Positions 4,613-63,822 of a stretch of DNA of 64,000 bases are shown piece by piece. A program made the position numbers and the translations under genes. The stretch covers positions 27,021-91,020 of the forward strand of contig JACOXB010000010.1 of the NCBI GenBank assembly GCA_016176505.1. Direction: 5' to 3'. A model generated the notes under the pieces. It had not been told where the DNA came from, made no database searches, and saw nothing but the letters and a program-made list of their open reading frames with translations. The stretch's first letter is position 1. The number at the start of each line of letters is the position of its first letter. Source of the DNA: Candidatus Colwellbacteria bacterium. GTDB taxonomy: Bacteria > Patescibacteriota > Minisyncoccia > UBA6257 > Colwellbacteraceae.

Positions 4613-4741
4613 ATGTCCCGCTGCTTCACGAATTCCCGGCTTCTCAATAAGGTGGGTGACCGCAGTTCTAGCCCACGGGCTAAAATCAATTAGGTCTCCC
4701 CTAAACCACTACTTTGATCCGGAATCGTGGAGGCGGGACAT
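4613..4741. other. 129-bp element closed by a perfect 9-bp inverted repeat (ATGTCCCGC…GCGGGACAT) with internal hairpins; candidate structured ncRNA or insertion scar
   Basis: Terminal inverted repeat read directly. The inner arms ACGATTCCGG / CCGGGAATTCGT extend the stem. An A7 run lies immediately 5' on the plus strand (T7 immediately 3' on the minus strand). No tRNA or SRP fold could be fitted. Confidence 0.3.
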
Positions 4742-4901
4742 ACTTATTATAACAAAATTCACTGGAAATGTTGTGGATAAACTGCGAGTTTAGGGACAAA
4801 TGGTCAAGAGACTCTGGGGAGGCGGTTTTGGCGGGTTGACATCGGAGGGCATTACTGGCGAGAGAACGAGAATTCGTTCTCCCGCCAGCCTTTGCCGATC
4901 C

Positions 4902-5156
4902 CTAGAGCTGTACCACTCCGCGCTTGTCGAACGCGTACTGCTTGTCGTCGCAGATCACGAAGCTCCAGAGATGATGATCGATGGGCCAGAAGCCCTTGAC
5001 CACGCGCCTGCCGTTCTTGCCGGGTTCAGACTGGAGGTAGACATCCCCGACCCTGCTTTTCCGGCCAGTTCTGATCGTCGTCCATGGGTCGGTCTTGCGC
5101 AGCCGAACCTGGACTTGGGTTCCTTTTTTCTGAAGCTTACCTGCCAAAAGTTCCAC
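4902..5156 (-). CDS. Hypothetical small protein in GC-rich segment
   Basis: 84-aa ORF with a protein-like composition (…GFWPIDHHLWSFVICDDKQYAFDKRGV…) inside a visibly GC-richer ~500-bp block. The competing plus-strand ORF 4800..5204 is Gly/Arg/Leu-biased and looks antisense. Confidence 0.3.
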   Translation of the reverse strand: MELLAGKLQKKGTQVQVRLRKTDPWTTIRTGRKSRVGDVYLQSEPGKNGRRVVKGFWPIDHHLWSFVICDDKQYAFDKRGVVQL

Positions 5157-5192
5157 CTCCCCCTCGTCTATCGGTCTCTAAACGTACTAACT

Positions 5193-5216
5193 GGAGCCCC
5201 GTAGAATCGAACCACC
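5193..5216 (-). other. tRNA 3'-end-like fragment (T-arm + acceptor 3' strand, GGTTCGATTCTACGGGGCTCCA on minus strand) without a matching 5' half
   Basis: The minus-strand sequence matches a T-loop/T-stem/acceptor consensus, but no complementary 5' acceptor strand lies upstream. This pattern is typical of an att-site remnant of a tRNA-targeting integrative element. Confidence 0.35.
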
Positions 5217-5284
5217 CCCTTTCCTTACCTCGCAGGCTCCCCTCCGAGTCCCTCCGTGCCCAGAGGGCAACCTGCCAGAAATAA

Positions 5285-5326
5285 AACCGGCCTTCTTTGC
5301 TGAAGGCCGGTTCTTTGTCTATTTTG
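5285..5326. terminator. Bidirectional rho-independent terminator
   Basis: Hairpin CCGGCCTTC-tttgctg-AAGGCCGG, flanked by an A-run 5' and TTCTTTGTCTATTTT 3'. It lies downstream of ndk (minus strand) and of the GC-rich block (plus strand). Confidence 0.6.
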
Positions 5327-7496: not shown

Positions 7497-8336
7497 CTAC
7501 TCTCGACCCACTCCAACTATACCATCGTTAATAATCAGATGAACTGTTCCGTTTTCATCGGTCCGATAAACCCGGCTGCCGACTGAAGCTAAACGGCTCA
7601 AAACAGCTGAAGTTGGATGACCGTAGGGATTATTCTCCCCTACTTCGATTACGCCAATTTTAGGCGTTGTTTCAGCTAAAAATTTCAGCCCAGTGGCTGT
7701 TCGCGAGCCATGATGGCCAACTTTTAAAATATCAGCGTCAAGGTCATAATGCTCGGTTAAATAATTCTCAACCTCAAAACCAGCATCGCCGGTAAAAAGA
7801 ATTTGGGCACCTTCAGCCTCAAGCTCAAGTACTAACGAACTATTATTTAATTCGCTTGAGTTTCGAAGCTGGTTTGTCGGAGAAAGAACGCTGATTAAGT
7901 TTTCCCCGTACCTGATTTTATCTTTAGCCCCAAGGGTAATAACCGGGATTTCTTTGCTCTTCACTAAATTCCAAAAATCCTGCCATTCTTTACCTTGACC
8001 TTCTCGACCGTTCCAAATAATCGCTCCGATTCTATAACGTTCAGCCACATCATAGAGCCCACCATAATGATCAAGCTGAGGGTGAGTAAGAATCACCAAA
8101 TCAATATAACGATCAGTTGGCCGAAGTACTCGCGCCAATTCGAAAAGCACTTCTTTGCCTGGCCCGCCATCAATTAAAACTTTTGCGCCTCCGGGTAAAA
8201 CTAAAAGCTCGCTGTCTCCTTGGCCAACATCGAGAAAATAAAGGTCGAGTTTCTCATCTCTCGCGGCTGCAACGTAATACCAAACAAAAAGATTAAAGCC
8301 AATTAAGACTAAAAAGCTTAATGACAAATATTTCAT
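7497..8336 (-). CDS. comEC: ComEC/Rec2 C-terminal metallo-beta-lactamase domain (separate ORF; overlaps the upstream ComEC membrane ORF out of frame)
   Basis: FLDVGQGDS, HPQLDHYGG and KVGHHGSRT motifs of the MBL fold, preceded by an N-terminal TM helix. Confidence 0.75.
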   Translation of the reverse strand: MKYLSLSFLVLIGFNLFVWYYVAAARDEKLDLYFLDVGQGDSELLVLPGGAKVLIDGGPGKEVLFELARVLRPTDRYIDLVILTHPQLDHYGGLYDVAERYRIGAIIWNGREGQGKEWQDFWNLVKSKEIPVITLGAKDKIRYGENLISVLSPTNQLRNSSELNNSSLVLELEAEGAQILFTGDAGFEVENYLTEHYDLDADILKVGHHGSRTATGLKFLAETTPKIGVIEVGENNPYGHPTSAVLSRLASVGSRVYRTDENGTVHLIINDGIVGVGRE

Positions 8337-9582
8337 AGCTCAAGAATAAGCCGACAATCCAGCTACTTATTAAAGATAGACTATTTGAAACAAGGCCCAA
8401 AGCCGCCGTGATAAAACCGAAAAACATGGTGAGTGGAATCGCCTCAAGCACGAGGATATTAGATAAAAGTGCGGTTGGTGAAATATAACCGAAACTAGTA
8501 AGCAGAATCGGCGAAACCGCCAGTTGAGCTGAAAAAGTTTGGAGAAAAGTAGTTCGCCAATTTAACCAGCCGTTCTTCCCGAAAAACCGAATCCAGTTTT
8601 TGAATCTCGGATAAAGATAAACAATGCCGATGGTGGCGGCAAAGGATAGCTGGAATCCAAGGTCAAATCTCAAAAGGCTTGGATTTAATAAAAGCATTAG
8701 AAGAGCCGTCAGGGTGATAGCATTTCGGAAACTATAAATCCGGCTTTGGTTTTGAGCCAAAAGTAATATTAAGCCCATAATACCGGCCCGGACTGCTGAA
8801 CTTTGAGCGCCGGTCATTAAAACAAAAGTGGGAATGGTGAAAATACTAAGGTAAAAAGCTTTGCGCCTGCCGATAAGACCGGCGAGCACTCCGGCTAAAG
8901 TCGTGCCGATAATCGCGATGTTATAACCAGAAAGAGCCACAATGTGAGTCGTGCCGCTTTTCCGCAGAGCCTCATCAAATTCTTTAGTAAACTCACTTCG
9001 TTCGCCAAAGAGAAGCCCAGAGAGAAGTGAGGCTTTCTCTTGAGGCAGGACCGAGTTGATATTGGAAACCATTTTTTCTTTCAGTCCAAAAAGGGAGGAT
9101 TTGATAAGGTTCCCCTGGTTTTGGCCAATGACCCTCACTCCGGGTTCGAAAACGAGATTAAGTGAACCGCTTGGTGATTTTTCGATTTTACTATTGACCT
9201 CGAGCACTTCGCCGTAGCCGAATTTCGGCAAAGGCGGAAGATACAACCGGACCTCGCCCTGGTACGGCTCTCTAAGTTTCAAATCCACTTCCTGGCCAGT
9301 CAAAGTATCTTTCGGCTCTCGGAAAACCACGCCCGTGAAGGTCTGCCCATCACCTGACGGTAGAATCTCTTGATTAAGAACGTTATAAAAATGAAAATAG
9401 AAAAACCCGAGAAAACTTATTAAAGACAAGATAAAGATAAACTTCGACCTCAAGCTAAAACCGAACCAGGCCAGAAGAATCGCGAGAATTATCCCGAGCC
9501 AAAAACTAATCTCAAAACTGGCAAACCCAATCCCTAGAATGAAGAAGAGGGCCGAATAAAAAGCGAGATTATAGAGCGGCAT
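8293..9582 (-). CDS. comEC: ComEC/Rec2 competence channel, membrane part (DUF4131 + Competence domain)
   Basis: Polytopic membrane ORF with a ComEC-like middle region (…TGTTHIVALSGYNIAI…). It lies directly upstream of the MBL ORF with a 44-nt out-of-frame overlap, which points to a split or frameshifted single comEC. Confidence 0.7.
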   Translation of the reverse strand: MPLYNLAFYSALFFILGIGFASFEISFWLGIILAILLAWFGFSLRSKFIFILSLISFLGFFYFHFYNVLNQEILPSGDGQTFTGVVFREPKDTLTGQEVDLKLREPYQGEVRLYLPPLPKFGYGEVLEVNSKIEKSPSGSLNLVFEPGVRVIGQNQGNLIKSSLFGLKEKMVSNINSVLPQEKASLLSGLLFGERSEFTKEFDEALRKSGTTHIVALSGYNIAIIGTTLAGVLAGLIGRRKAFYLSIFTIPTFVLMTGAQSSAVRAGIMGLILLLAQNQSRIYSFRNAITLTALLMLLLNPSLLRFDLGFQLSFAATIGIVYLYPRFKNWIRFFGKNGWLNWRTTFLQTFSAQLAVSPILLTSFGYISPTALLSNILVLEAIPLTMFFGFITAALGLVSNSLSLISSWIVGLFLSYEIFVIKLFSLNWL

Positions 9583-9660
9583 TATATCAAAGTTAGAAGT
9601 TTAAAAATTAAAAATCAAAAAGTGGAAAGGCCCGACGTGGACCTTTCCGCGCCGGGCCGA

Positions 9661-9885
9661 CTAGCAGCCAGGGCCGCAGACGTAGTCGTGGAAGAAGCAA
9701 CCCTTGCCTGATCGGCAATCGGGGCATTCTTTTCGACGTTGTTGTGCGCGCGTCCGTGCTGCTTGCGCCAGCAACCGATCAAGCGCCTCTTCCCTCCTCT
9801 TCTCTTCCTCCTCTCTCCGCTTTCGGAGCTCTTGTTCGTGCCTAGAACGCGTGTACCCGATAGCGAACGGTGTCGGCTGAATCAT
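9661..9885 (-). CDS. Hypothetical small protein, Arg/Glu-rich with Cys-rich C-terminus (GC-rich island)
   Basis: 74-aa ORF ending …CPDCRSGKGCFFHDYVCGPGC. It is the third of three co-oriented small ORFs in the GC-rich block. Confidence 0.35.
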   Translation of the reverse strand: MIQPTPFAIGYTRSRHEQELRKRREEEEKRREEALDRLLAQAARTRAQQRRKECPDCRSGKGCFFHDYVCGPGC

Positions 9886-9937
9886 CCCCCCACCGCTCCT
9901 TCGCCTTCTCGTACGCCGCTCCCATCATCTCTCCTTT

Positions 9938-10207
9938 CTAGCATCGATCGCTATGCTCGTAGCACCAAGCCGTACCTTCTCTCTTCGCTGCTGGGCAGCC
10001 ACAACCCTTGCTGTAATCAGCTAGAGATCTGATCGCCCTGGCCTCTAACTCTAGCTCACTGGCTTGGCGGTGAAGCCGCCACGCTTCTTGCTCCAACTCT
10101 CTGGCGCGTTGATCTACGCTCTTGGGTTTGGCTTGCGGAGCAGGAGGACCAGAGGCGGCGGTAGCCCACCGCTCTTCGGCGCGCTGACGAGCTGATTTGG
10201 TCTCCAT
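9938..10207 (-). CDS. Hypothetical small protein with Cys/His-rich C-terminus (GC-rich island)
   Basis: 89-aa ORF ending …CGCPAAKREGTAWCYEHSDRC, co-directional with its neighbours. Confidence 0.35.
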   Translation of the reverse strand: METKSARQRAEERWATAASGPPAPQAKPKSVDQRARELEQEAWRLHRQASELELEARAIRSLADYSKGCGCPAAKREGTAWCYEHSDRC

Positions 10208-10208
10208 C

Positions 10209-10439
10209 TTACTTCTCCTTTCTCTCGTCTTTCAGTCTCATGAACCCGTAGTTGCCGTCAGGCTTCCGACCGAACCACTGACCCGGTGGCGCTTGCCGGT
10301 TCATCTCCCTAACTAGGTCGGCTAGGAACATGTTCGCCCACAATTCGCCGATTACCGGATTCAGTTTCTTCAGCCAGAGCAAGAGTTCGGTGAGCATCTC
10401 CTCCTCTGTCTGATTCGCCGGATTTACCATTCCATCCAC
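10209..10439 (-). CDS. Hypothetical small protein (GC-rich island)
   Basis: 76-aa ORF with a balanced composition (MDGMVNPANQTEEEMLTELLLWLKKLNPVIGELWANMF…). Its stop overlaps the start of the 9938..10207 ORF. Confidence 0.4.
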   Translation of the reverse strand: MDGMVNPANQTEEEMLTELLLWLKKLNPVIGELWANMFLADLVREMNRQAPPGQWFGRKPDGNYGFMRLKDERKEK

Positions 10440-11047
10440 CTCCTTTCTATATTCTCAAGGTTCTGGTGCCGAGTTTCGTCCTTTGCCTATTTCAGGCGGG
10501 ACTCGTCGGGGCGAGTTTGACTCGCCGACTCGGTCTGCCCGGGAGAGCGATTTAGTTTCATCACTCTCCCGGGACCTTGTGCGCGGAGCTAGTCGTCCGG
10601 GTCGTTCGAGTCGTCCCAAATGGCCTCCTCGAACTCCTCGGGGACGCTCTCCCACGCGCACTCCAAGCAGTCGAACCAGTCGTTTCCGTGTTCGCAAAAC
10701 TCTTCCTCTTCCACCTCTTGCTCCTTTCCGTGGGTCTGGCCGCTTAGCTTTGTGCTAGCAGGTCGTCAGGTTGTTTCAAGGTGCTTCCTTGAGGGCGGCT
10801 ATGCCCTCAGGAGGCAGGACGTCCTTGGACTCCGAGCCTCCCGAGGGTATAAAAACCGCCGCGGCTAGCGGCGGTTCGGCCCAGATTGCCTGTTTTAGGT
10901 TTAAAAAATCGCCTTCCCGGCGACCTTTCTCTGACTTTATTTTGGAGCTTCTTTTTCCTGAATCTCCTCATTTTGTCCATATATTATAGCATAGTCGATA
11001 TCGCTTGTCAAGGCCCCCTTTAGCCCCATAAATAAAGGACTTTTGGC

Positions 11048-12043: not shown

Positions 12044-12071
12044 GGCGATGAATATCAGTTTAATTTATTCT

Positions 12072-12105
12072 ATCATACTGCTTTGCTGTAGCAAAGCAGT
12101 ATGAT
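12072..12105. promoter_or_regulatory. Perfect 16+2+16 bp palindrome ATCATACTGCTTTGCT-gt-AGCAAAGCAGTATGAT upstream of the TrpR-like gene
   Basis: Read directly. It shares the core GCTTTG…CAAAGC with the second palindrome at 12157..12188. Confidence 0.6.
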
Positions 12106-12156
12106 ATCTTAGTCTCGTTAACGTCAGATACCATTAATGTCGTTGATACTAGCGCT

Positions 12157-12188
12157 ACTAAGTGCTTTGATGCATCAAAGCACTTAGT
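12157..12188. promoter_or_regulatory. Perfect 32-bp palindrome ACTAAGTGCTTTGATG/CATCAAAGCACTTAGT
   Basis: Read directly. It is the second of two related palindromes in the 190-bp upstream region of 11660..12043. Confidence 0.6.
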
Positions 12189-12279
12189 ATGAAATTAATC
12201 GGGTTTATAGAATTAATCAGGTTAAGATGTTTAAAAACGTGAAGCCCCCGTCATGAAGACCGGGGGCTGTAGGCAGCGA

Positions 12280-12564
12280 TTATGCGTGTCCTCCGAGGGC
12301 GAAACGAAGTTTTTCGCTGGTCTCAGAATCCAACACGACCATGTTCCGCCTTGGGGTCTTCTGGGAACCCGGAACAGGCATGCCGTGCTGACGGAAGACC
12401 TCCTCCTCGGCCTTGTCGATCGCCTCGAGCCCGAGACCGAACCCCATCGCCGTGAGGCCGACGAGTAGCCCGTTCGTTGCCTCATGGGGCTTGAGCCAAC
12501 CCATGAGACGACCCACGAGCACCAGACCGTTCCAAACCGCACCAACCTTGATCAGGGGATTCAT
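12280..12564 (-). CDS. Hypothetical small membrane protein in GC-rich block
   Basis: ORF (start taken at the internal Met, MNPLIKVGAVWNGLVLVGRLMGWL…) with two hydrophobic helices. The local GC content is clearly above that of its neighbours. Confidence 0.3.
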   Translation of the reverse strand: MNPLIKVGAVWNGLVLVGRLMGWLKPHEATNGLLVGLTAMGFGLGLEAIDKAEEEVFRQHGMPVPGSQKTPRRNMVVLDSETSEKLRFALGGHA

Positions 12565-12633
12565 GTCCCCTCCTTTCCGACTCGAAGAACAACAGTTGTG
12601 CTTGGCTGAAAGTAACACTAGTTTCTCGTTCCG

Positions 12634-13743
12634 TCAACCAATTATTACTCCGCCGCCGAGCATCTCGTACCCGTAACCCGCCTTCGCTCCGCTACGGCAA
12701 GGCAAGTAAAAAACAGCTGATTGTCCCGGAGCTACAAATTTTTGAGGATGCTCAAAAAATACCCTGTACCTGGTGCCTGGCACACTGTACAGTTTTGCGG
12801 GAACAAGCGGCTGGCGATAACGAACCCGAACGAAAATATCGCCTCCCTCTATTGGGTTGATAAAATTGACGTCGGTGAGTTCGATTTCGTTTCGATAAAG
12901 AGACTCATCGCTCTCCCTGGCAAGAACAACCGTATTTTTCTCGACGTCTTTTTCAGCTACGTAATGAGGTTCATTTAAGGCGACCCCTAAGCCATGACGC
13001 TGGCCAATAGTGTAAAAATGAGCACCGGAATGAGCGCCGACTACTTTCCCATCGCTATCGAAAACTCTCCCCTGTTTTTGGGGAAGATATTCGCTTAAGA
13101 ATTCTTCAAGCGTTACCTTGCCGACAAAACAAATACCTTGAGAATCTTTTTTCTCGGCTGTCGGCAATCCCGCATCTCTCGCCATCTTTCGCACCTCACT
13201 TTTTAGATAATCGCCAATCGGAAAAAGACAATACTTTAACTGCTCTTGAGTCAAAGTCCATAAAAAATACGACTGGTCCTTCTGCTCGTCCCGAGCAATT
13301 TTCAATTTCCAATTTTCAGTTTTCAAATCTTTTTCAAGTCGAGCGTAATGACCAGTCGAGATGTAATCCGCTCCCATCGCGAGCGCTTTTTCTAAAAACA
13401 AGCCGAACTTGATTTCCTTATTGCACATCACATCCGGATTCGGCGTTAAGCCTCGCCGATAGCCTTCAATCATGTAATCAACCACTTTTGCCTTGTATTC
13501 TTTTTCGAGATCAAGCACATAAAATGGGATGCCGAGGTGATTGGCCACCCTTCTCGCATCATCGGCTTCTTTTACATCACAGCCATCCCGATTCCAGCAG
13601 CGCAAATGAATCCCGGTTACCTCATATCCCTGGTTTCTTAATAATAATGCCGCAACGGATGAATCAACGCCGCCGGACATTGCCACAAAAACCCTTCGAC
13701 TACGCTCAGGGCTTTCAGCTTTCTTGTTATACTCGTTCCGCAT
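12634..13743 (-). CDS. mnmA: tRNA-specific 2-thiouridylase MnmA
   Basis: PP-loop VAMSGGVDSSVAA, plus conserved Cys residues. Confidence 0.85.
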   Translation of the reverse strand: MRNEYNKKAESPERSRRVFVAMSGGVDSSVAALLLRNQGYEVTGIHLRCWNRDGCDVKEADDARRVANHLGIPFYVLDLEKEYKAKVVDYMIEGYRRGLTPNPDVMCNKEIKFGLFLEKALAMGADYISTGHYARLEKDLKTENWKLKIARDEQKDQSYFLWTLTQEQLKYCLFPIGDYLKSEVRKMARDAGLPTAEKKDSQGICFVGKVTLEEFLSEYLPQKQGRVFDSDGKVVGAHSGAHFYTIGQRHGLGVALNEPHYVAEKDVEKNTVVLARESDESLYRNEIELTDVNFINPIEGGDIFVRVRYRQPLVPAKLYSVPGTRYRVFFEHPQKFVAPGQSAVFYLPCRSGAKAGYGYEMLGGGVIIG

Positions 13744-25554: not shown

Positions 25555-27376
25555 CTTCCTTATCTTTATATAATGACTCGCCTATCTTTTGAAGTGCAGA
25601 AGAAAGATTTTGAGCAGCGGTTTCGATTTCGGTTTTATTACTGCCAACGATGGCCTTTTTCAATTCCTCAATTTTAGCGCTGACTTCTTCTTTCAACTCA
25701 GGTTTAATCTTGGCTTCGTTATCTTTAAGGGATTTCTCGGCCGTATAAACAAGGGCTTCGGCCTGATTCCTGGCCTCAGCTAATTCTTTTTTAGCTCTAT
25801 CTTCGCTCGCGTGAGCAGATGCCTCTTGTTTCAACCGCTCAACTTCTTCTTTGCTTAAGGCGGTTGAAGCTTTAATTCTTACTTCGTGGGTTTTCCCGGT
25901 GGCCTTATCAACAGCTTTCACATTCAAGATGCCATTCGCGTCAATATCAAAAGTCACCTCAATCTGGGGCATGCCTCGGGCAGCCGGCGGAATACCCTCA
26001 AGCTTAAATAAGGCCAGGGTTTTATTATCAGCCGCCATCTCTCTTTCGCCTTGAAGCACGTGGATCTCAACCGAAGTTTGATTATCAGCCGCGGTTGAAA
26101 AAATCTGAGTTTTGGCTGTCGGAACAGTCGTATTTTTATCAACTAATCTCGTAAAAATGCCGCCGAGGGTTTCAAGCCCTAAAGAAAGCGGGGTGACATC
26201 GAGCAGGAGCACGTCTTTAATATCGCCTTGGAAAATGCCAGCCTGGACTGCCGCGCCAACCGCCACCACTTCGTCTGGATTAATCGAAAGATGCGGCTCT
26301 TTGTGAAATAGATTTTTGACTGCTTCCCGCATGGCCGGCATTCGGGTCTGGCCGCCAACTAAGATCAGTTCGTCAATGTCTTCGAGTTTAAGACCAGCGC
26401 CTTTGGGCGGGGCGGCTGTTACCGTTTCTTTCACTAGCTCGATCGAGCGGTCGATATACTCCCGCACTAATTCTTCAAGTTTGGCCCGAGTCAGCTTCAT
26501 TAAGAAATGTTTAGGACCTGAAGCATCAGAGCTGATATAGGGCAAATTGATTTCTGTTTCGAGCGAAGTTGAAAGTTCGTGTTTAGCTCGCTCAACAGCT
26601 TCTTTTAAGCGCTGAAGCGCGAGTGGGTCTTTACTAATATCAATACCTTCGCGGCTTTTGTACTCTTTGACAAGCTCATCAATGATTTTTTTGTCAAAAT
26701 CATCGCCGCCCAAGTGTGTGTCGCCGCCAGTGGCTTTGACCTCAACCACATTGTCGCCGACCTCAAGCACGGAAATGTCAAAAGTGCCACCGCCAAAATC
26801 ATAAACCACAATCTGCTCATTCTTTTGCTTATCAAGCCCGTAAGCCAAAGCAGCCGCAGTCGGCTCATTAATAATCCGCTTAACCTTAAATCCGGCAATC
26901 TCGCCGGCGTTCTTCGTGGCTTGTCTTTGAGAATCGTCAAAATAAGCCGGCACGGTGATCACTGCTTCTTCAATTGTTTCGCCGAGCTTGGCTTCGGCAT
27001 CAGCCTTTAATTTCGCAAGCACCATGGCGGAAATTTCCTCGGGCTTATACCAACGGTCGGACATTTTTATCTCCACGCCGCCATCAGCCGCCTCCCTTAG
27101 TTCAAACGGGAGCCATTCTTTGTCGCGCCCGACTGCCGGATCGGAGAAACGCCGGCCAATCAGCCGTTTTACTGAAGAAATCGTGTTTTCCGGATTGGTA
27201 ATAGACTGTCTTTTGGCGAGGAGTCCGACCAACCTTTCGCCAGAACGGGAAATAGCAACTACTGATGGCGTGGTGCGATTACCCTCGCTATTTTCTAAAA
27301 TCCGCGGCTCGCCACCTTCGACTACAGCCATAGCGGAGTTGGTCGTACCCAAATCAATTCCTAGTATTTTGGCCAT
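25526..27376 (-). CDS. dnaK: Chaperone DnaK (Hsp70)
   Basis: [17 protein letters not shown] and the full Hsp70 architecture. Confidence 0.95.
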
Positions 27377-27876: not shown

Positions 27877-28004
27877 AATTAATCCTTCAATTGCGAAATT
27901 TAGCGAAGCGCAAGTCTTCTGTCAAGATTTCATTATAATTTTAAAAATGCGAAAGCCCCTGCGTGTAAGCCGAATGCTTTCGCATCCCCCTCGCACACAG
28001 GGGT

Positions 28005-28409
28005 CTATCCCTCTCCATCTTCCTCCGCCATCTCGCTCATCGCACTCGGCGCATGGAACACGAGTTCCGGATGCTTGAACTCCTCTAGCTGAAGAACGGC
28101 GTAGTAGTGGTTGAGAGCCGATGGCAGGAGATCCTTCTCCAGGAACATCGCGAGGAGAGCCCGGTTTTCCGCTGGGGTTCTGGCGAACTCATTGATCCGA
28201 GGAACGATCTTCTCGAAGAAGAACTCGTTGGCCCTCGTCACGGGTGCGTCTCGCCTCGACTTGTGGTTCAGGAAGGCGACGATCGCCTCCGCAAGACGCA
28301 GAAGGAAACGCCCTCCAGCCTCTTCAGCCGCTGCTTCCCAGACTTGCCACATCAGCTCTTGGCGGAGCTTCTGACGCGCCATATCCCTGACGATCCACGC
28401 CTCTGTCAC
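28005..28409 (-). CDS. Hypothetical protein in GC-rich block
   Basis: 134-aa ORF with a protein-like composition. The local GC content is elevated. No motif recognised. Confidence 0.35.
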   Translation of the reverse strand: MTEAWIVRDMARQKLRQELMWQVWEAAAEEAGGRFLLRLAEAIVAFLNHKSRRDAPVTRANEFFFEKIVPRINEFARTPAENRALLAMFLEKDLLPSALNHYYAVLQLEEFKHPELVFHAPSAMSEMAEEDGEG

Positions 28410-28635
28410 CGCTGTTCACCTCCCGAATTGTCAACGCCCTTAAGGGCACTACGGATTTAATAACTTATTTTATTGATAAAGTCAACTTCAAAATTTCCCC
28501 CCATGAGGTCCTATTTAAAAAAGTCACCATTTTCAGCGATCGCTTAAATCGGTGATATATCGTGCTTTGCCCGTTACTGCCCTGCCCTATGTTTAATAAT
28601 ATGATTAATTATACGGCAACTATAAAACCTATTTT

Positions 28636-33790: not shown

Positions 33791-33869
33791 AATATAAGCT
33801 TAACAAATTTAAAAAGCAAAGGGGGCGTCCTCCGCAGAGAACGCCCCCGAGCGTCGTGGGGACGTAGTG

Positions 33870-34211
33870 CTAATACTGGTAGTAGTCCTGGACCTCGATC
33901 CACCCCCTGCGGGTGTAAACGTCATATTCGCCCCGGCAGAGATAGGAACCGTGGAACCCCAGTGCTCCTTCTTCGACCGAAGCCCTACCACGGAAATTCC
34001 AGTTTGTACCAGGCGGGAACGGTGGTTCACGATCCAACCCGCTAATGTCGAGCAGGATCGTGATCTTGCTTCCGTAGGAAGTTGACGAGTGGAAGACGTT
34101 ATCGGTGACTCCCACTCTCCGCCAGCCAAGGAAGTAGAGTAAGAAACCCATCTCACTTGGACCGCGCTCGATCTCGAAGCGCGTCCACTTCCGGCGAGGC
34201 ATACGCCCCAC
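33870..34211 (-). CDS. Hypothetical protein in GC-rich island upstream of tRNA-Glu
   Basis: 113-aa ORF. A perfect 26-bp palindrome (34348-34373, centred on CTGCAG) lies in its upstream region. Confidence 0.35.
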   Translation of the reverse strand: MGRMPRRKWTRFEIERGPSEMGFLLYFLGWRRVGVTDNVFHSSTSYGSKITILLDISGLDREPPFPPGTNWNFRGRASVEEGALGFHGSYLCRGEYDVYTRRGWIEVQDYYQY

Positions 34212-34463
34212 CTCCTTTCAACGTACTGTCGCTATTCAGCCGTAGCGACCTTCGACGTTATCCCCTTACGGGAGACCACCCGCTCATACAAGCAGGAATT
34301 ATTAATAGATAAGCATAAAACTATTTAATAGTCAATAGATAATAATATTATAACATTCTGCAGAATGTTATAATATTCTGTATAGCAAAATCGAGTATAT
34401 AAAAATGCGAAGGCTCCTCCCCGCCCCGGCAGGGAGGAGCCAACGTGTGCGGGCGGAGGTGAA

Positions 34464-35090
34464 TCAACGCCGTAGGAGCTCGAATGTGTTGTGATCGAGA
34501 CGGATGTCTGGCGGGATGTTGTACTCCCGAACCAGCTCCTCGGGGATCGGATCGGGAGATCGATCCATAACCATGGTCCCCAGAGGCAGGGGCGGCCGAC
34601 CGCCATCGGAAAACTGAAGCCTCATTTCCTCCGGCTTCCATCCCGAGACATGGACAACCCGAGGCCGCAAGTAAGAAGCGGCCCTATCGCGCAGCTCTTC
34701 ACGGCACGCGAGACACGTCCAGTGAACTTCTCGATACTCGCGGTCACCGCCGTAGTGATCAGCGGGGCCTCTTGTACCCTCGAGGTAGACCGGTAGAATC
34801 TCGCTTGCCGGCACAGCCCCGTGATGGTAAGTGCAGTAGTCCTTACCGTCTTCGAGCAACCTGCGCCGCAAGAGCGTCAACCGATCCTTACGGTAGCTTG
34901 CGATCTCCCCTTCGAGCGCCCCCCTCTTCTTGTCCAGGGTCCTCTGGGTGGCCTTGAGACCGAAGAACTTCCTTACGATCTCCTTCCCCAGGAAGCCCAG
35001 TTCGCCTTCCTGGAGCTCACCGAATAGAGTCTTCGCTGTCACGCTCATCCTTTCTTCACCTCCTCCAATTGTCGATGTGCGGGCGGCCAT
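34464..35090 (-). CDS. Hypothetical protein in GC-rich island (real start probably at internal MSVTAKTLF…)
   Basis: ORF with a protein-like composition and elevated GC. It is followed on the minus strand by the hairpin GGCTCCTCCC…GGGAGGAGCC plus a T-run (about 34388-34441). Confidence 0.4.
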   Translation of the reverse strand: MAARTSTIGGGEERMSVTAKTLFGELQEGELGFLGKEIVRKFFGLKATQRTLDKKRGALEGEIASYRKDRLTLLRRRLLEDGKDYCTYHHGAVPASEILPVYLEGTRGPADHYGGDREYREVHWTCLACREELRDRAASYLRPRVVHVSGWKPEEMRLQFSDGGRPPLPLGTMVMDRSPDPIPEELVREYNIPPDIRLDHNTFELLRR

Positions 35091-35161
35091 AAAGCCAAAT
35101 TCACTTTGGCTGATTTTAGGAGATTAGTCAATTATTAAAATTTCTGTTATGATTCCGACGA

Positions 35162-35237
35162 GCTCCCATCGTCTAGTGGCCTAGGACGCATGGTTCTCAT
35201 CCATGTAACCGGGGTTCGATTCCCCGTGGGAGCGCCA
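35162..35237 (+). tRNA. tRNA-Glu (anticodon CTC), CCA encoded
   Basis: Hand-folded: GCTCCCA / TC GTCT AGTGGCCTA GGAC G / CATGG TTCTCAT CCATG / TAAC / CGGGG TTCGATT CCCCG / TGGGAGC G CCA. Confidence 0.8.
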
Positions 35238-35244
35238 GAAATAA

Positions 35245-35276
35245 AAAGACCTGTTGACGGGTCTTTTTGTTTTTGG
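35245..35276 (+). terminator. Intrinsic terminator after tRNA-Glu (AGACC-tgttgacg-GGTCT + TTTTGTTTTTGG)
   Basis: Read directly. Confidence 0.55.
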
Positions 35277-35393
35277 GGAATCGAACCAGGAAGGGGTCGG
35301 GAAACGGTAGTTTCCCGTGTCGGAAAACAGCGAGCGAAGCGAGTGCCAGAAACCGAGGGTGTCTGGGGAGCGAATGAAAATGAGCGACGTGAG

Positions 35394-35411
35394 ATTCCCC
35401 GTGGGAGCGCA
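35394..35411 (+). repeat. 18-bp direct duplicate of the tRNA-Glu 3' end (GATTCCCCGTGGGAGCGC), bounding a ~160-bp insertion that carries GCGAG / AGAAACC motifs
   Basis: Identical to 35218-35235 of the tRNA. The intervening segment contains CAGCGAGCGAAGCGAGTGCCAGAAACCGAGG. Confidence 0.6.
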
Positions 35412-35422
35412 AAAAACAAAAA

Positions 35423-50301: not shown

Positions 50302-50990
50302 TGGAGCTAGAAGCACTTCAACGAAAAATTAGTTTAAATTTTGAAAATCTTGACCTTTTAAAGGAGGCCCTGACCCACCGTTCTTATTTAAATGAAAATC
50401 CTAAATGGCAATACGGCAATAATGAACGCTTGGAATTTTTAGGCGATGCGGTACTCGAACTTGCTATTACTGAAGAACTTTTCAGCCATTTTCCTAAAAA
50501 AGAAGAGGGCGAATTAACTCTTTATCGAGCTGGATTAGTGAACACCAGAACCTTGGCCCAGCTCGCCGAGGAAATAGAGCTTGATAAAGCTATTCTTTTG
50601 TCCCGGGGTGAGGCTAAAAACTTCTCCGGCCGGGCCAAAGAAACAATTTCAGCTGACGCAGTTGAGGCGTTGATCGGTGCGATTTACTTAGATCAGGGAT
50701 ACGAAAAGGCTAAAGAGTTCATTAATCGCTTCATTTTCTCTCGGGTTGATGAACTGATTAAAGAAGGCGGTAAAGATCCGAAAAGTCTGATTCAAGAAAT
50801 GGCTCAAGGAGAGCATAAAGTAACGCCGACCTATCGGGTTCTTTCCGAAACCGGACCGGCCCACGATCGAATTTTTAAAGTTGGCCTTTATTTTGGTGAA
50901 GAATTAAAAACCGAGGGCGAAGGCAAATCCAAACAAGAAGCCGAAACCGAAGCCGCTAAAAACCTGCTCCGAGAAATGCGAAGAATCTAA
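50301..50990 (+). CDS. rnc: Ribonuclease III
   Basis: The ERLEFLGDAVLELAITEELF signature, plus a C-terminal dsRBD. Confidence 0.9.
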   Translation: MELEALQRKISLNFENLDLLKEALTHRSYLNENPKWQYGNNERLEFLGDAVLELAITEELFSHFPKKEEGELTLYRAGLVNTRTLAQLAEEIELDKAILLSRGEAKNFSGRAKETISADAVEALIGAIYLDQGYEKAKEFINRFIFSRVDELIKEGGKDPKSLIQEMAQGEHKVTPTYRVLSETGPAHDRIFKVGLYFGEELKTEGEGKSKQEAETEAAKNLLREMRRI

Positions 50991-51050
50991 AAATGGGAAG
51001 GCCCGCCTGTGGTGCGGGATCCCTCCCATCCACGGCGGGCCGTGAAAACT

Positions 51051-51884
51051 TCAGTCGATCTCGGCGCTCGACTGCCACGGGGCGATCATCGCGGTCTGGC
51101 CCATCACGTGTGGACCTTCGAGTACCAAGGCCGGATGGTCGCTATTGTAGAGCACGCCCTCAGCGACTAGGAGGATGGCGGTATCCCCGCTGGAAGTCCG
51201 ACCGAAGGTGATGCTCGTTCCGTCGAGCAGATGCCTGGTCCCGAAAACCCTCTGCCAACCCGTCACATTCAGCGATTGCCGAACATGATTGTAGTCGACC
51301 ACGAGCTCCTCGGGGGGCAGGCGATGACCACGGGCCTGCATCAACTCGATCGTCTGCCACCAGCTGAGCGGCGTGCCTGGCGGCGGCAGCTCGAGGCGCT
51401 GAACCTGCAGCCTGGCCGCTACTTCGTTCCCCCGAAAGAGCCGATCCTTACGGGGGTCTGGTGCGAGCACCGGGAAAGCGAAGATGTCTCCCTGCCGCTT
51501 GGTGTGCTCTCGACCGAACTGCTTCTCCAGCTCACGGATGCGTCTCGGCTTGATGGCTTCGAAGAAGCCGGTCTCGCCCCGCTTACCGTAGATCTCGAGA
51601 ACCTCGGGTTCAAGCGGAACAAGAAACGGCCGCTCATCAGTGCCGCCGAAGAACACCTCTCGCGGATGTTCGCCGTTCTCGGCGAAGAGGAACTGCACAC
51701 CGCCATTTAAAGGAACGAACACGCTGGTCTTGGTCGTGACCAGAGTGATGTCGCTGCCAGCCCGTCGGGTGTCGTTCCCCGACATGCCACCGTAGCCAGA
51801 TTGCCAAGATTCGAAGCGCAGGCTAGCGAGACCAGCCCGTTCCGGCAGCGTTGCCATATCTGCGACTTTCATGTCACCTCCCAT
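51051..51884 (-). CDS. Hypothetical protein in GC-rich island between rnc and dnaE
   Basis: 277-aa ORF with a balanced composition. The antisense plus-strand ORFs are Arg/Pro-biased. The GC content is clearly above that of its neighbours. Confidence 0.45.
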   Translation of the reverse strand: MGGDMKVADMATLPERAGLASLRFESWQSGYGGMSGNDTRRAGSDITLVTTKTSVFVPLNGGVQFLFAENGEHPREVFFGGTDERPFLVPLEPEVLEIYGKRGETGFFEAIKPRRIRELEKQFGREHTKRQGDIFAFPVLAPDPRKDRLFRGNEVAARLQVQRLELPPPGTPLSWWQTIELMQARGHRLPPEELVVDYNHVRQSLNVTGWQRVFGTRHLLDGTSITFGRTSSGDTAILLVAEGVLYNSDHPALVLEGPHVMGQTAMIAPWQSSAEID

Positions 51885-51908
51885 CTCGCGGATACGATCC
51901 TGATCGAA

Positions 51909-52175
51909 CTACTGCCAGTTTCGTTTTCCCTTCGCCCACTTGGGCATATGCTCGGCGCAGTAGTACTGCTCGTCCTCGACCCGCTCCGCGGTTACGTAGA
52001 CGTATGCTGGTTTGCCGCACGAACAGTTCTCGTAGGCACGCCAGCCCTTGGCATACCCGATCGACACGACAAAAGCCATTAGATTCCTCCTCCCCTCACG
52101 AATCAACGTGCTGTTGAGACCCTCTGCCTCAATAATAACATCAAACCAGATATTGGTGATTCTGTAAACCCCCAC
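51909..52175 (-). CDS. Hypothetical small protein in GC-rich island (CxC…CxxH motif)
   Basis: 88 aa (…YENCSCGKPAYVYVTAERVEDEQYYCAEHMPKW…). It is followed at 52169-52196 by the perfect palindrome CCCCCACACCTAT-aca-TAGGTGTGGGGG and by GAGCCAGGGGCGAGGGCGG. Confidence 0.4.
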   Translation of the reverse strand: MGVYRITNIWFDVIIEAEGLNSTLIREGRRNLMAFVVSIGYAKGWRAYENCSCGKPAYVYVTAERVEDEQYYCAEHMPKWAKGKRNWQ

Positions 52176-52244
52176 ACCTATACATAGGTGTGGGGGTAAA
52201 GCGAAAGTTGAGCCAGGGGCGAGGGCGGCTTATAATGAGCTAAA

Positions 52245-55200
52245 ATGGCGAAATTTGTTCATCTGCACACTCACTCTCACTACTCTCTGCTTGATGGTCT
52301 TTCGAAAGTCGGCCCCTTAGTAAAGAGAGCTAAAGAACTAGGGATGGAGGCCCTGGCCCTGACTGACCATGGCAATCTTTACGGTTCGGTTGAGTTTTAT
52401 AAAAAGGCTAAAGCGGCCGGGATCAAACCCATCATCGGCGTTGAAACTTATGTAGCTCGCCACTCTCGTTTATCTAAAGACCCGAAAGTAGATAGTGTTC
52501 GTTATCACCTGACTTTACTGGTTAAAAATAAAGAAGGCTATCGCAACCTAGTTCAGTTAATTACTAAATCGCACCTTGAAGGTTTTTATTACAAGCCAAG
52601 AATCGACAAGGAGCTTTTAGAAAAATATCGCGAAGGTTTGATTTGTCTTTCCGGCTGTTTTTCGGGAGAGGTGGGAAAACTTTTACGAGCCGGAAACAAA
52701 GCCGGAGCTGAAGAAGCGGTAAAATATTATCACAATCTTTTTGGAAAAATACAACATCCCTTTAGTCGCCACCCAAGATTCTCATTATTTAAATCGTGAG
52801 GACGCGCCGATTCACGAAATCCTTTTGGCGATCCAGACCAATAACCGGCTTGATGATGAGGATCGATTAACCTTTAAAGAGCACGATGCCTCTTTTCGCT
52901 CAGGCGAAGAGATGGCTGAAGTTTTCAAAGATTTACCCGAGGCAATCGAGAATACACTCCGCGTGGCGGAAAAATGCAATTTCGAGTTTGAGTTAGATAA
53001 AACCCATTTGCCAGTCTATCCCCTGCCCGAGGGTGAAACTAATAGCAATGTTTATTTACGACGCATAGCTCGCGAGGGTCTGCCAAAACGAGGACTTGGG
53101 GCTGATAAAAAAGCTCATGAACGGCTTGAATATGAACTTGGCGTGATTGAGACAACCGGCTTCGCCGACTACTTCCTGATTGTCCAGGACTTTGTGAACT
53201 GGGCTAAAAATCACGGCATTGCCGTTGGCCCGGGCCGAGGCTCAGCTGCCGGCAGTATTGTTTCTTATCTTTTAAATATCACTGATGTTGACCCATTAAA
53301 ATACGACCTGCTTTTTGAAAGATTTTTGAATCCGGAGCGAATCCAAATGCCGGACTTCGATCTTGATTTTGCCGACCACCGTAGGGACGAAGTTTTGGGA
53401 TATTTAAGAGATAAATACGGCAATGAGCATGTGGCTCAAATCATTACCTTCGGCACCATGGCCGCGAGAGCCGCGGTTCGCGATGCTGGCCGAGCTATGG
53501 GGATACCCTATTCTTTTTGCGACCGGGTGGCCAAGCTAATTCCTTTTATGGCCAACTTCGGCAACGAAGGCATTTCGGCATATCTAGAAAAATCACCAGA
53601 ACTTAGAGCGCTTCATGATTCTGATCCCCAAGTTAAAAATCTTTTGGAAATTGCCGAGAGACTGGAAGGTGTGGCTCGTCATGCTTCGGTCCATGCCTGC
53701 GGCGTTGTTATCACTGAGGAACCAACCACCCAGTACCTCGCTCTCCAGCGAGCGCCCCAAGATGAAAATACGATTATCACCCAAATTGAAATGCATGGAG
53801 TTGAAGACCTGGGCCTTTGGAAAATTGATCTTCTCGGGCTCCGAAACCTGACTATTATCGAGGAAACTTTAAGGCTAATTAAAGAACTTGATGGGGAGGA
53901 GATAAATATTGCTGATTTACCGCTCGATGATAAAAAAACTTTTGAATTGCTCCGCGCCGCTGAGACCACTGGTATTTTTCAGTTTGAATCTTCGGGCATG
54001 AAACGCTACATGAAAGACATAAAACCAACTAGTCTTGAAGATTTAGCCGCTCTTGTAGCCCTATACCGCCCTGGCCCGATTGAACTTATCCCAAGCTACA
54101 TTGCTCGAAAGCACGGTAAAGAAAAAGTAACTTATCTCCATCCCAAACTCGAGCCAATTATGGAAAAAACTTACGGCATCGGCATCTATCAGGAACAAAT
54201 GATGAGAATTGCGACTGACCTCGGGGGCTATACCCTGCCCGAGGCCGACACCCTAAGAAAAGCGATTGGTAAGAAAATCAAAGCTCTTCTTGATGCCCAA
54301 AAAGAAAAACTGATCAACGGGATGGTTAAAAACGGCATTGACATGAGAACAGCGGGGAAAATTTGGAGTCTCTTCCCGCCTTTTGCCCGTTATGGCTTCA
54401 ACCGCTCTCATGCTGTCTGCTACGCCTTGATTGGCTATCGGACCGCTTATTTGAAAAGTCATTACCCGGTTGAATTTATGACCGCCCTTTTAAACAACGC
54501 TTCGGGCGATGTGGAACGAATTTCTTTCTTAATTGACGAGGCCAAAAGAATGAAAATCGAGGTGCTTGCGCCTGATGTTAATAAAAGTGTCAGTGATTTT
54601 GTGCCTGAAGAAGTCAATATTCGTTTCGGCCTTCTCGCGATTAAAAATGTGGGTGCCAATATCACTCAGGCGATTGTTGAGGAACGATTAAGAAACGGGC
54701 CCTACGAAAGCCTGACTGGTTTCATTTTGAGAGCCAGACCCTTTGGCATGAATAAAAAAGTGGTTGAATCGCTTGCTAAAAGCGGCGCCCTTGATTCGCT
54801 CGGAGTTGAGAGAATGACGATTTTAAATAACACCGATGCCCTCCTCAGGGCAGCTGGCGGCACGAAAGCCGAAGCCACGAATGGCCAAAATAATCTTTTT
54901 GGCGCGAATCACAAATTTGAAATCAAACTCGTTCCCGCCCCCGAGCCGGCTTCGAGAACCACTAAACTTGGCTGGGAAAAAGAATTAATCGGACTTTATG
55001 TGACCGAGCACCCGCTTAAAGAATACTGGGAAAAACAAAATCCGAACGAGAACCAAACTATTAAAGGGGTTGTTGAAAAAGCGATTGAAGGGCGGGCGGC
55101 TAAGATTTTTGGTATTATTTCTAAAGTCCATCGGGTCCAGACGAAAACGGGGCGGATTATGTTTTTTGCCAAAATCGAGGATCCGAGTGGTACTATTGAA

Positions 55201-55341
55201 GTATTAGTTTTCCCTGACACCCTGGGTAAGGATCCGAGCCTGTGGCAGGAAAATAATGTAGTCGAAATTAATGGTCGAGTATCGAAAAGAGACGGCGAAC
55301 CAAAGTTAATATGCGCGGAGGCAAAAGCGATCAGTCTTTAG
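52245..55341 (+). CDS. dnaE: DNA polymerase III alpha subunit (DnaE), reading frame interrupted by a +1 shift near 52745-52760 (ORFs 52245..52799 and 52741..55341)
   Basis: PHP domain (HLHTHSHYSLLDG) in the first ORF. PLVATQDSHYL, the polymerase palm/fingers and the C-terminal OB domain are in the second. The shift coincides with a GGAAAAATAC run. Confidence 0.85.
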
Positions 55342-63659: not shown

Positions 63660-63758
63660 TTTTTGACAACTCGAATAATCGAGCTAGAATATTGGGGGTA
63701 AACAGCGGGGAAGTGTAACAGTTGCACGTGAGCCTCATAAGCTCAAGGTAGTGGGTGC

Positions 63759-63822
63759 AATTCCCGCCCCCGCAACATGTTTGGGCGGCGGTCGGGGGAG
63801 AAAAATTCCCGCCCCCGCAACA
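63759..63822 (+). repeat. Two 19-bp direct repeats (AATTCCCGCCCCCGCAACA at 63759 and 63804), followed by two strong hairpins (63830-63857; 63866-63896), upstream of tRNA-Met
   Basis: Read directly. The first hairpin (GTCGGCGTGGCGC…GCGCCGAC) reuses the tRNA-Met acceptor sequence GTCGGCG/CGCCGAC. Confidence 0.55.

Follow-up and report, generated by a model that had tools for sequence, protein, structure and literature searches.

A TIGR-TasA locus with 43 guide units among seven GC-rich islands of probable foreign origin in a Candidatus Colwellbacteria genome

What are the short, GC-rich segments that interrupt the housekeeping operons of a Candidatus Colwellbacteria genome, and where did they come from? 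The question is raised by a 64,000-nt stretch (hereafter the window; positions 27,021 to 91,020 of contig JACOXB010000010.1, 93,284 bp in length) from a metagenome-assembled genome of this bacterium, a member of the candidate phyla radiation (CPR, or Patescibacteria), with locus tags HYS89_. An earlier examination of the letters of the window (hereafter the sequence-only reading) had marked seven such islands and attributed them to repeated invasion by one family of small integrative elements or phage satellites. The present analysis points to a different answer: the islands are, with good confidence, seven horizontally acquired segments of higher GC content, of which the largest is a TIGR-TasA RNA-guided system and the other six are independent cassettes from the accessory gene pool of CPR bacteria and CPR phages. 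The sequence-only reading had missed this system, the main content of the largest island.

The compositional evidence is clear-cut. An unbiased scan of the whole window with a 300-bp sliding window and a threshold at the median plus 2.5 robust standard deviations returned the segments 4780-5310, 9599-10938, 12208-12709, 20284-23211, 27947-28462, 33814-35102 and 50893-52111 and no others, that is, exactly the seven islands that had been marked; in 500-bp bins, the GC content peaks at ~10, 21-23, 28, 34.5 and 51 kb. Over the originally marked intervals, the GC content is 0.52-0.59 compared with a background of 0.454 (z = 2.8-8.4), and none of the background windows of equal length attains the GC content of any island. 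The GC content at third codon positions (GC3) is 0.68-0.86 in the likely island genes (0.85 in tasA of the largest island) versus 0.43-0.50 in seven housekeeping genes; the GC shift of the islands is mainly synonymous. The GC-normalised dinucleotide distance (delta*) of each island from the other islands pooled is 41-121, and that from the host is 131-217; for reference, 1-kb pieces of host DNA lie at 74 +/- 28 from the host. GC, GC3 and the non-host dinucleotide signature agree on a foreign composition and a higher-GC source, as had been proposed. The location of the islands at operon boundaries is borne out as well: they are flanked by housekeeping genes, which include those for Ndk, ComEC, a CobA-like corrinoid adenosyltransferase, MnmA, SecD/SecF, DnaJ/DnaK/GrpE, RecR, a PGI-like SIS protein, RNase III and DnaE.

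Island 4 (20250..23250, plus strand; GC 0.57), which is surrounded by minus-strand housekeeping genes, is a complete dual-repeat TIGR-TasA system. TIGR-Tas systems were described in 2025 (Faure et al., Science 2025, PMC12045711); the family has a curated NCBI model, and the number of reported tas loci exceeds 20,000. The island comprises the tasA gene (20387..21313, plus strand; MBI2011015.1, HYS89_02175) and three arrays of tigRNA units. The earlier statement that the islands encode only small proteins accordingly stands in part, failing for this island with its 308-aa gene and ~1.6 kb of non-coding 36-nt repeat arrays.

The TasA protein scores 140.1 bits against the NCBIfam model NF052498.1 (TIGR_Tas_endo), above the cutoff of 100, and has no Pfam domain match. 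In a phmmer search of the PDB, it matches TasR (9mty_A, 1.3e-13) and TasH (7.9e-9), and its AlphaFold2 model (mean predicted local distance difference test score, pLDDT, 91.4) retrieves TasR and TasH as the best Foldseek matches (E 9e-10), followed by the IS621 and ISCro4 recombinases. The protein also matches a PHROG labelled "transposase"; this label and the "transposase IS116/IS110/IS902 C-terminal" label in the PDB are due to the IS110-like Nop domain of TasA. The model starts directly at a coiled-coil helix (residues 11-41) and includes neither a RuvC nor an HNH nuclease domain; in the alignment of homologues (A1), the coiled coil, the Nop domain and a Zn ribbon, inserted at C172...C195 and found in only about half of the homologues, account for all 308 residues. 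The absence of a nuclease domain, together with the coiled coil in first position, assigns the protein to the TasA subtype. Tyr289 and His296 align one-to-one with Y289 and H296 of SpTasH and are invariant in 40 homologues in the same alignment. In SpTasH, these residues form the dyad that processes pre-tigRNA (PMC13421893), and in TasA they would make up a candidate processing loop, the catalytic role being suggested by this sequence correspondence.

All three arrays lie on the plus strand. Array 1 (21324..21400) consists of two 36-nt units (at 21324 and 21360) located directly after the tasA stop codon, closes with a truncated edge repeat, AGCGA, and is followed by an intrinsic terminator (21430-21468, plus strand). 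In array 2 (21539..22658), 31 units follow one another in perfect 36-nt register; a promoter-like leader (21509-21538, plus strand) that contains TTGACA stands before the array, which ends with the truncated edge AGCG and a terminator at 22689-22722. Array 3 (22776..23139), with 10 units, likewise ends in a truncated edge and a terminator (23167-23199). The 43 units, all in exact 36-nt register, are distributed over three separately terminated arrays: tasA and the two-unit array 1 form one terminator-ended unit, and arrays 2 and 3 each possess a leader and a terminator of their own. Behind the terminal AGCG(A) there is in each case a hairpin with a T-run; TIGR arrays have been described as ending in this way, with a truncated edge repeat and a terminator (PMC12045711).

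Within a unit, the order is an edge repeat (AGCGAGYCR), a 9-nt spacer, a loop repeat (AGAAACCCA) and a second 9-nt spacer; viewed over 20100-23560, the plus-strand open reading frame (ORF) is succeeded by repeat units of the form AGCGAGCC...GAAACCC... The information profile across the units alternates between nine conserved, nine variable, nine conserved and nine variable positions, which agrees with the two alternating repeats of 8-12 nt and the ~9-nt spacers of dual-repeat TIGR-Tas arrays. Both repeats open with AG (A in 43 of 43 units, G in 41 of 43) and close with CC plus a purine, mostly A. Two units, one in array 2 (21971-22006) and one in array 3 (22848-22883), differ at a single one of their 18 spacer positions, a hint that duplication or recombination contributes to array growth.

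It is scarcely credible that the 36-nt periodic region is instead a gene for a repeat protein, a CRISPR array or a minisatellite. Gene callers do predict two minus-strand ORFs with "ARS...GF" repeats, one of 241 aa (21417-22142) and one of 87 aa, and a period of 36, equal to 12 codons, keeps reading frames open. However, two conserved 9-nt blocks alternate with fully variable 9-nt gaps and show no 3-nt periodicity, the arrays end in plus-strand terminators, and the identical pair of repeats accompanies tasA homologues, on the tasA strand, at 76 loci. With regard to CRISPR, cas genes are missing, and CRISPR repeats, at 25-36 nt and with spacers of similar size, are far longer; a CRISPR-Cas assignment was rejected given the 9-nt repeats of two kinds and the lack of any Cas family match in PADLOC and Pfam.

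Two small features of the locus can be mentioned here. The hexamer GACCGG (20330, 21529 and 22766) stands just before the first element of each of the three TIGR transcription units, and the complementary ACCGGTCA (21413, 22669 and 23146) follows just after the truncated edge repeat of each. The pair was not found in ~110 array leaders and trailers of homologous loci, so it is specific to this locus and not conserved in the family; it may be a mark of module duplication or serve the pairing of precursor ends. Past array 3, at 23229-23460, lie a fourth promoter-like copy with TTGACC (TAGGTGTTTTGACCT) that is not followed by an array and degenerate edge-like motifs (GAGCGAGCC...GGCGAGCC...GCGAGCGAG), which may be array debris.

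The same edge and loop repeats are present at 76 of 80 homologous metagenomic loci, with 831 of the 842 units located on the tasA strand; in the family at large, the repeat motifs of TIGR arrays can diverge yet covary (PMC12045711). Across 34 of the homologous loci, the number of units ranges from 0 to 28 compared with 43 here, and arrays of 5-15 units are the commonest (PMC12045711). The GC content of tasA (0.634) exceeds that of all 33 homologous genes measured (0.40-0.58), and the homologous loci hold a GC content of ~0.43-0.52 while that of their hosts ranges from 0.30 to 0.57. None of the spacers of the 43-unit locus is shared with the 842 units of the 76 loci, and no gene from any other island of the window occurs together with tasA at any of the 80. 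TasA relatives are encoded on eight IMG/VR viral contigs, six of which have a GC content of 0.58-0.60.

In most respects, the locus resembles the dual-repeat TIGR-TasA systems already known, such as FpTasA: a solo protein with a coiled coil and a Nop domain, a 36-nt unit built of edge, 9-nt spacer A, loop and 9-nt spacer B, repeats with a common AG start and CCA end, arrays beside tas on the same strand that end with a truncated edge and a terminator, the Y/H dyad, and a CPR host. It differs from them in the 43 units divided among three arrays, the lack of an upstream array, the high GC content of tasA (0.63), the locus-specific GACCGG / ACCGGTCA leader-trailer pair and the Zn-ribbon insertion. 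The box D of its units is AG, whereas that of TasR arrays is UG (AG...CCA here as opposed to UG...CCA). The TasR and TasH nucleases (PDB 9MTY; 9W03, 9W04 and 21KL) are closest in sequence and fold and resemble TasA in the Nop domain and in the C-terminal loop with Y289/H296, but they carry an N-terminal RuvC or HNH domain that TasA lacks; DNA cleavage is therefore not expected. The IS110-family bridge-RNA recombinases (IS621 and ISCro4) have a related C-terminal RNA-binding fold (Foldseek E 3e-3 to 5e-2, TM-score ~0.4); TasA, by contrast, is devoid of the DEDD/RuvC-like domain, lies beside an array of numerous short guides in place of one bridge RNA, and is not bounded by transposon ends. An IS110-family insertion sequence was considered and rejected, given the missing N-terminal catalytic domain and the weak Foldseek similarity. 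CRISPR arrays are comparable in the interspaced repeats and variable spacers beside an effector gene and in the processing into unit-length guides; the island 4 arrays differ from them in the two alternating 9-nt repeats, the split 9+9-nt spacers and the lack of cas1/cas2 and of leader-proximal adaptation machinery.

By analogy with the published systems, array 1 would share a transcript with tasA, and the transcription of arrays 2 and 3 would be driven by the TTGACA-containing leader of each. Homology to the TasH, TasR and TasA proteins studied so far suggests that the Tyr289/His296 loop of TasA would cut the transcripts inside the edge repeats to release 36-nt tigRNAs, and that a TasA dimer might grip each tigRNA where the edge and loop repeats start (box-D-like AG) and end (box-C-like CCA). 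On target DNA, spacer A would pair with one strand, and the partner of spacer B would be the neighbouring stretch on the opposite strand. Lacking a nuclease, the complex could act by occupancy and block transcription or replication; one TasA, MbTasA, has been characterized as an RNA-guided, reversible repressor of transcription (bioRxiv 10.64898/2026.09.09.750476). The most likely targets would be phages or other mobile elements of the community.

How did island 4 enter the genome? Its left boundary coincides with the 3' end of a tRNA-Lys(UUU) gene (20175..20249, plus strand; ARAGORN and Rfam), which the island abuts, in agreement with the sequence-only reading. In one relative (L004), the order GrpE-DnaK-X-DnaJ-tRNA-Lys-SecD-SecF is kept, DnaJ and SecD are ~460 bp apart, and island 4 is absent; in another (L003, Liptonbacteria), the same DnaJ-tRNA-Lys-SecD site is occupied by ~2 kb of different GC-rich ORFan genes. 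Absent at one syntenic site and replaced at the other, the island has been acquired and is not ancestral. A Logan contig from one sample (L001) covers exactly 20220-23280, that is, island 4 plus 30 nt on each side, and 20220 is also the first base of a shorter Logan contig from a second sample. Logan assemblies use k = 31, and given this value the contig ends suggest branches of the assembly graph at 20249|20250 and 23250|23251. No repeat of the tRNA-Lys was found at the far end of the island (23.2-23.5 kb). The Liptonbacteria relative carries GC-rich ORFan islets of its own at 885-1472 and 7509-8700 (GC 0.53-0.61 versus ~0.46), unrelated to those of the window, which lie at comparable operon boundaries, one of them after the tRNA-Lys gene of that genome. 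Islets of this kind look to be general in these CPR genomes.

The notion that the segments are native ancestral genes, rendered GC-rich by selection or by a local mutation bias, is most improbable. In its favor, island 2 is stably joined to its flanks in five samples, and all of the island genes look functional and are preceded by good ribosome-binding sites. However, selection at the protein level hardly explains the GC3 shift, which is synonymous (+0.2 to +0.4), island 4 is absent from the syntenic L004 site, and the island proteins are ORFans, with that of island 5 having a homologue only in a non-syntenic location.

The six smaller islands, all with genes on the minus strand, are cassettes of one to five genes, mostly with a GGAGG-type ribosome-binding site and usually with their own terminator. 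Island 1 (4780..5310; GC 0.57) begins right after the bidirectional terminator of ndk (5285-5312) and contains a single gene (4902-5156, minus strand) for an 84-aa protein, HYS89_02085. Island 2 (9599..10938; GC 0.57) encodes proteins of 74 aa (9661-9885), 89 aa (9938-10207), 76 aa (10209-10439) and 41 aa (10589-10714), three of which have Cys-rich C-termini; the linkage of this island to both flanks in five independent Logan assemblies indicates that it is not a chimera. Island 3 (12208..12709; GC 0.56) consists of one gene (~12280-12564, minus strand; 94 aa from the ATG) with a GGAGG ribosome-binding site and a terminator at ~12235-12270. In island 5 (27947..28462; GC 0.58), the only gene (28005-28409, minus strand) encodes a 134-aa protein, HYS89_02200. 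Island 6 (33814..35102; GC 0.55-0.58) contains a gene for a 208-aa protein (34464-35090, minus strand) and possibly a second gene (33870-34211, minus strand). Island 7 (50993..52200; GC 0.59) encodes a 57-aa Zn-binding protein (51909-52082, minus strand) and a 277-aa protein (51051-51884, minus strand).

Among billions of proteins, the ORFan products of the islands have between 0 and 12 distant homologues; many of these products are Zn-binding, and the Cys-rich ends noticed in the sequence-only reading are present in many. Profile searches, which that reading had recommended for the small proteins, yielded no match to Pfam, PHROGs, NCBIfam or PADLOC families for any ORF of the six small islands. 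The 208-aa protein of island 6 combines a coiled coil with a Zn-binding C86/C126/C129 motif, has 11 remote homologues and gave no match in a profile search against the PDB. In the 277-aa protein of island 7, the motifs FGGTDERPF, RQGDIF, TRH and APDH are conserved, and no solved structure resembles it in fold. The proteins are uncharacterised, yet the cassettes are ordinary in kind.

Such homologues as do exist connect the islands to one another and to phages. The island 5 protein has only two, with 69% and 60% identity, encoded in non-syntenic GC-rich islets of another CPR genome. On a contig of that kind (L097-L099), the homologue with 60% identity lies ~430 bp from a homologue of the 57-aa protein of island 7 (57% identity, E 4e-14), inside a GC-rich islet whose genomic neighbourhood differs from that in the window. 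A member of the family of the 277-aa island 7 protein is encoded on a 45.8-kb phage contig, in a module for replication and nucleotide metabolism with genes for a DNA polymerase, thymidylate synthase, dUTPase, Sak4 and SSB. Comparison with viral contigs gave a mixed outcome: the TasA and 277-aa families have phage relatives in IMG/VR, and no relatives of the island 5 and island 6 proteins were found on viral contigs. The neighbouring homologues of island 5 and island 7 genes, along with the family member in a phage module, lead to the view that the islands draw on a common CPR/phage pool; the six small cassettes would have been taken from the accessory genes of CPR genomes and CPR phages and would not be copies of one integrative element.

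Several observations weigh against the acquisition of a functional TIGR-TasA system and six independent cassettes. Synteny supports acquisition for island 4, to which this evidence is limited. All four genomes compared (the window, L003, L004 and L005) have a tRNA-Lys gene between DnaJ and SecD, but in the window it is co-oriented with tasA and on the opposite strand relative to the three others (L003:7294-7368, L004:4738-4811, L005:13885-13956); the switch of strand implies an inversion of the tRNA together with the island, or a replacement. The expression and processing of the arrays and the DNA binding of TIGR-TasA are deduced here from related systems. Finally, the 43 spacer pairs were compared, in both orders and with gaps of 0-2 nt, to the window (up to four mismatches) and to 0.69 Mb of fetched loci including nine phage contigs (up to three mismatches); the matches in the window and in the 0.69 Mb are as numerous as in shuffled controls and reveal no natural target. 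Self-targeting was rejected because of the same equality with shuffled counts, and a match with three mismatches at 10989, on the boundary of island 2, is within chance. With no match above chance and no spacers in common with other loci, external mobile elements are the likeliest, albeit unproven, targets.

A single family of small integrative elements or phage satellites that repeatedly entered tRNA attachment (att) sites, as the sequence-only reading had it, is quite unlikely and indeed largely refuted. The families of integrases, recombinases and replication proteins were sought in the island ORFs in Pfam, PHROGs, NCBIfam and PADLOC, and the sole match was that of TasA to the "transposase" PHROG discussed above; no island contains a packaging gene either. 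Direct repeats bracket none of the seven islands, the islands show no similarity to each other in blastn or tblastx comparisons, and at 0.5-3 kb they are too small for autonomous elements. What speaks for such a family is the dinucleotide signature common to the islands and the proximity of some of them to tRNA genes. Islands 4 and 6 lie beside tRNAs, a copy of the tRNA-Glu 3' end occurs 156 bp downstream, and a few homologous TIGR-TasA arrays (L017, L018/L019 and L082) end 20-400 bp from a tRNA gene (Ile, Tyr or Met). However, ~28 of 34 homologous TIGR loci have no tRNA within 8 kb, and the putative tRNA scars in the window do not fit. The supposed tRNA 3'-half fragment at 5193-5216, which had been taken for an att scar at the end of island 1, matches tRNA over a 10-nt T-loop only (E 3.2), which is not significant; its interpretation as a tRNA-like minihelix or a piece of tmRNA was also rejected, as ARAGORN and Rfam return nothing and the minimum free energy fold pairs the putative 5' acceptor partner elsewhere.

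The claim made for island 6 survives in part. The tRNA-Glu gene (35162-35237), the 5' end of which faces the island, is 60 bp away, and the 18-nt duplicate of its 3' end is real (35393-35410, E 5e-5), extending to a direct repeat at 35393..35422 (plus strand) in which 27 of 30 nt, including an A-rich tail, are identical to 35218-35247. The duplicate does not bracket island 6: it encloses only 155 bp on the far side of the tRNA, downstream of it, and the island is upstream. Between the two tRNA-Glu repeats, at 35275-35287, there is an inverted copy of the T-arm (GGTTCGATTCCCC), and the 155-bp interval has AGCGAG...AGAAACC-like motifs. The interval may have been left by an old integration or excision, possibly as an att scar.

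Compared with tRNA-associated islands, phage satellites and phage "moron" cassettes, the islands are alike in being foreign DNA at operon boundaries, in two cases beside tRNAs, and in carrying small ORFan, partly phage-related genes. They differ from tRNA-associated islands and satellites in the lack of an integrase and of att repeats and in their size of 0.5-3 kb, being nearer to moron-like single-gene cassettes. Perfect palindromes were tried as a signature of insertion and discarded: seven of 11 are in or near islands, which can be explained given that the islands are intergenic DNA rich in terminators and operators. Those in or beside islands include 12071-12106, 12156-12189, 34344-34377, 52168-52197 and 23299-23322, with arms of 11-14 nt (11-17 nt in a repeat finder with shorter loops). 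The pair at 12.1 kb shares a GCTTTG core and is located upstream of a Trp-repressor-like gene; these palindromes may be operators.

Another possibility, a weaker alternative to independent cassettes and on balance unlikely, is that the islands are scattered remnants of one larger GC-rich prophage or genomic island, which would have integrated a single time and later been broken up by rearrangement and deletion in a shrinking genome. It would account for the common non-host dinucleotide signature and the similar GC3, for the adjacency of island 5 and island 7 genes in another genome, for the phage relatives of two island families and, through local rearrangement, for the inverted tRNA-Lys. Opposed to it are the conserved GrpE-DnaK-DnaJ-(tRNA-Lys)-SecD-SecF order, which in comparison with the relatives gives no evident sign of large-scale scrambling, the tidy form of the cassettes, which sit exactly between operons with their own ribosome-binding site and terminator, and the family scans, in which the 64 kb contain no remnants of phage structural or integrase genes.

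Separate acquisition of the cassettes leaves room for a conjecture of low probability, namely that the cassettes move among CPR genomes and phages by an integrase-independent route to operon boundaries and terminators and that TIGR-TasA is part of this traffic. If so, TIGR-TasA could police such elements or aid their recombination as an RNA-guided DNA-bending factor, and the island 7 pair of 57-aa and 277-aa proteins could be a new phage-derived module of defence or counter-defence.

As a member of a published family, the locus leaves the knowledge of TIGR-Tas unchanged and is a well-characterised example rather than a discovery; its locus tag has no match in the supplements of PMC12045711 that were examined, and it is possibly already catalogued. 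What sets it apart are the 43 guides in three arrays, the near-duplicate guide between arrays 2 and 3, and the very high GC content. The natural targets of TIGR-Tas and the growth of its arrays are two open questions, for both of which a 43-guide locus is useful. Located on a long chromosomal CPR contig, in a bacterium repeatedly sampled in one groundwater series, it suits a search for targets from the same site, and the near-duplicate makes it a good case for the growth of arrays by duplication. In a wider view, small foreign cassettes, drawn from a pool that the host has in common with its phages, can be densely present even in a very small genome of the symbiont type.

Some further features of the window deserve mention. 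Close to island 1, at 4613-4741, a ~128-nt hairpin is followed by a run of seven U residues on the minus strand (folding z -4.9 on the plus and -4.0 on the minus strand); it has no Rfam match and may represent a small RNA or else the terminator or 3' end of the island 1 transcript. Near the end of the window, a second tRNA with a CAT anticodon is recognized at 63704-63775 by Rfam (48.5 bits) and not by ARAGORN; a second copy of its last 17 nt, located 28 bp further on at 63804-63820, can pair with the intervening G-rich stretch. Next to island 7, dnaE is split into two overlapping ORFs, 52245-52799 (a 184-aa N-terminal part) and 52741-55341 (866 aa, with the polymerase, finger, HhH and OB domains), which could reflect a frameshift, a sequencing error or a real split of the gene.

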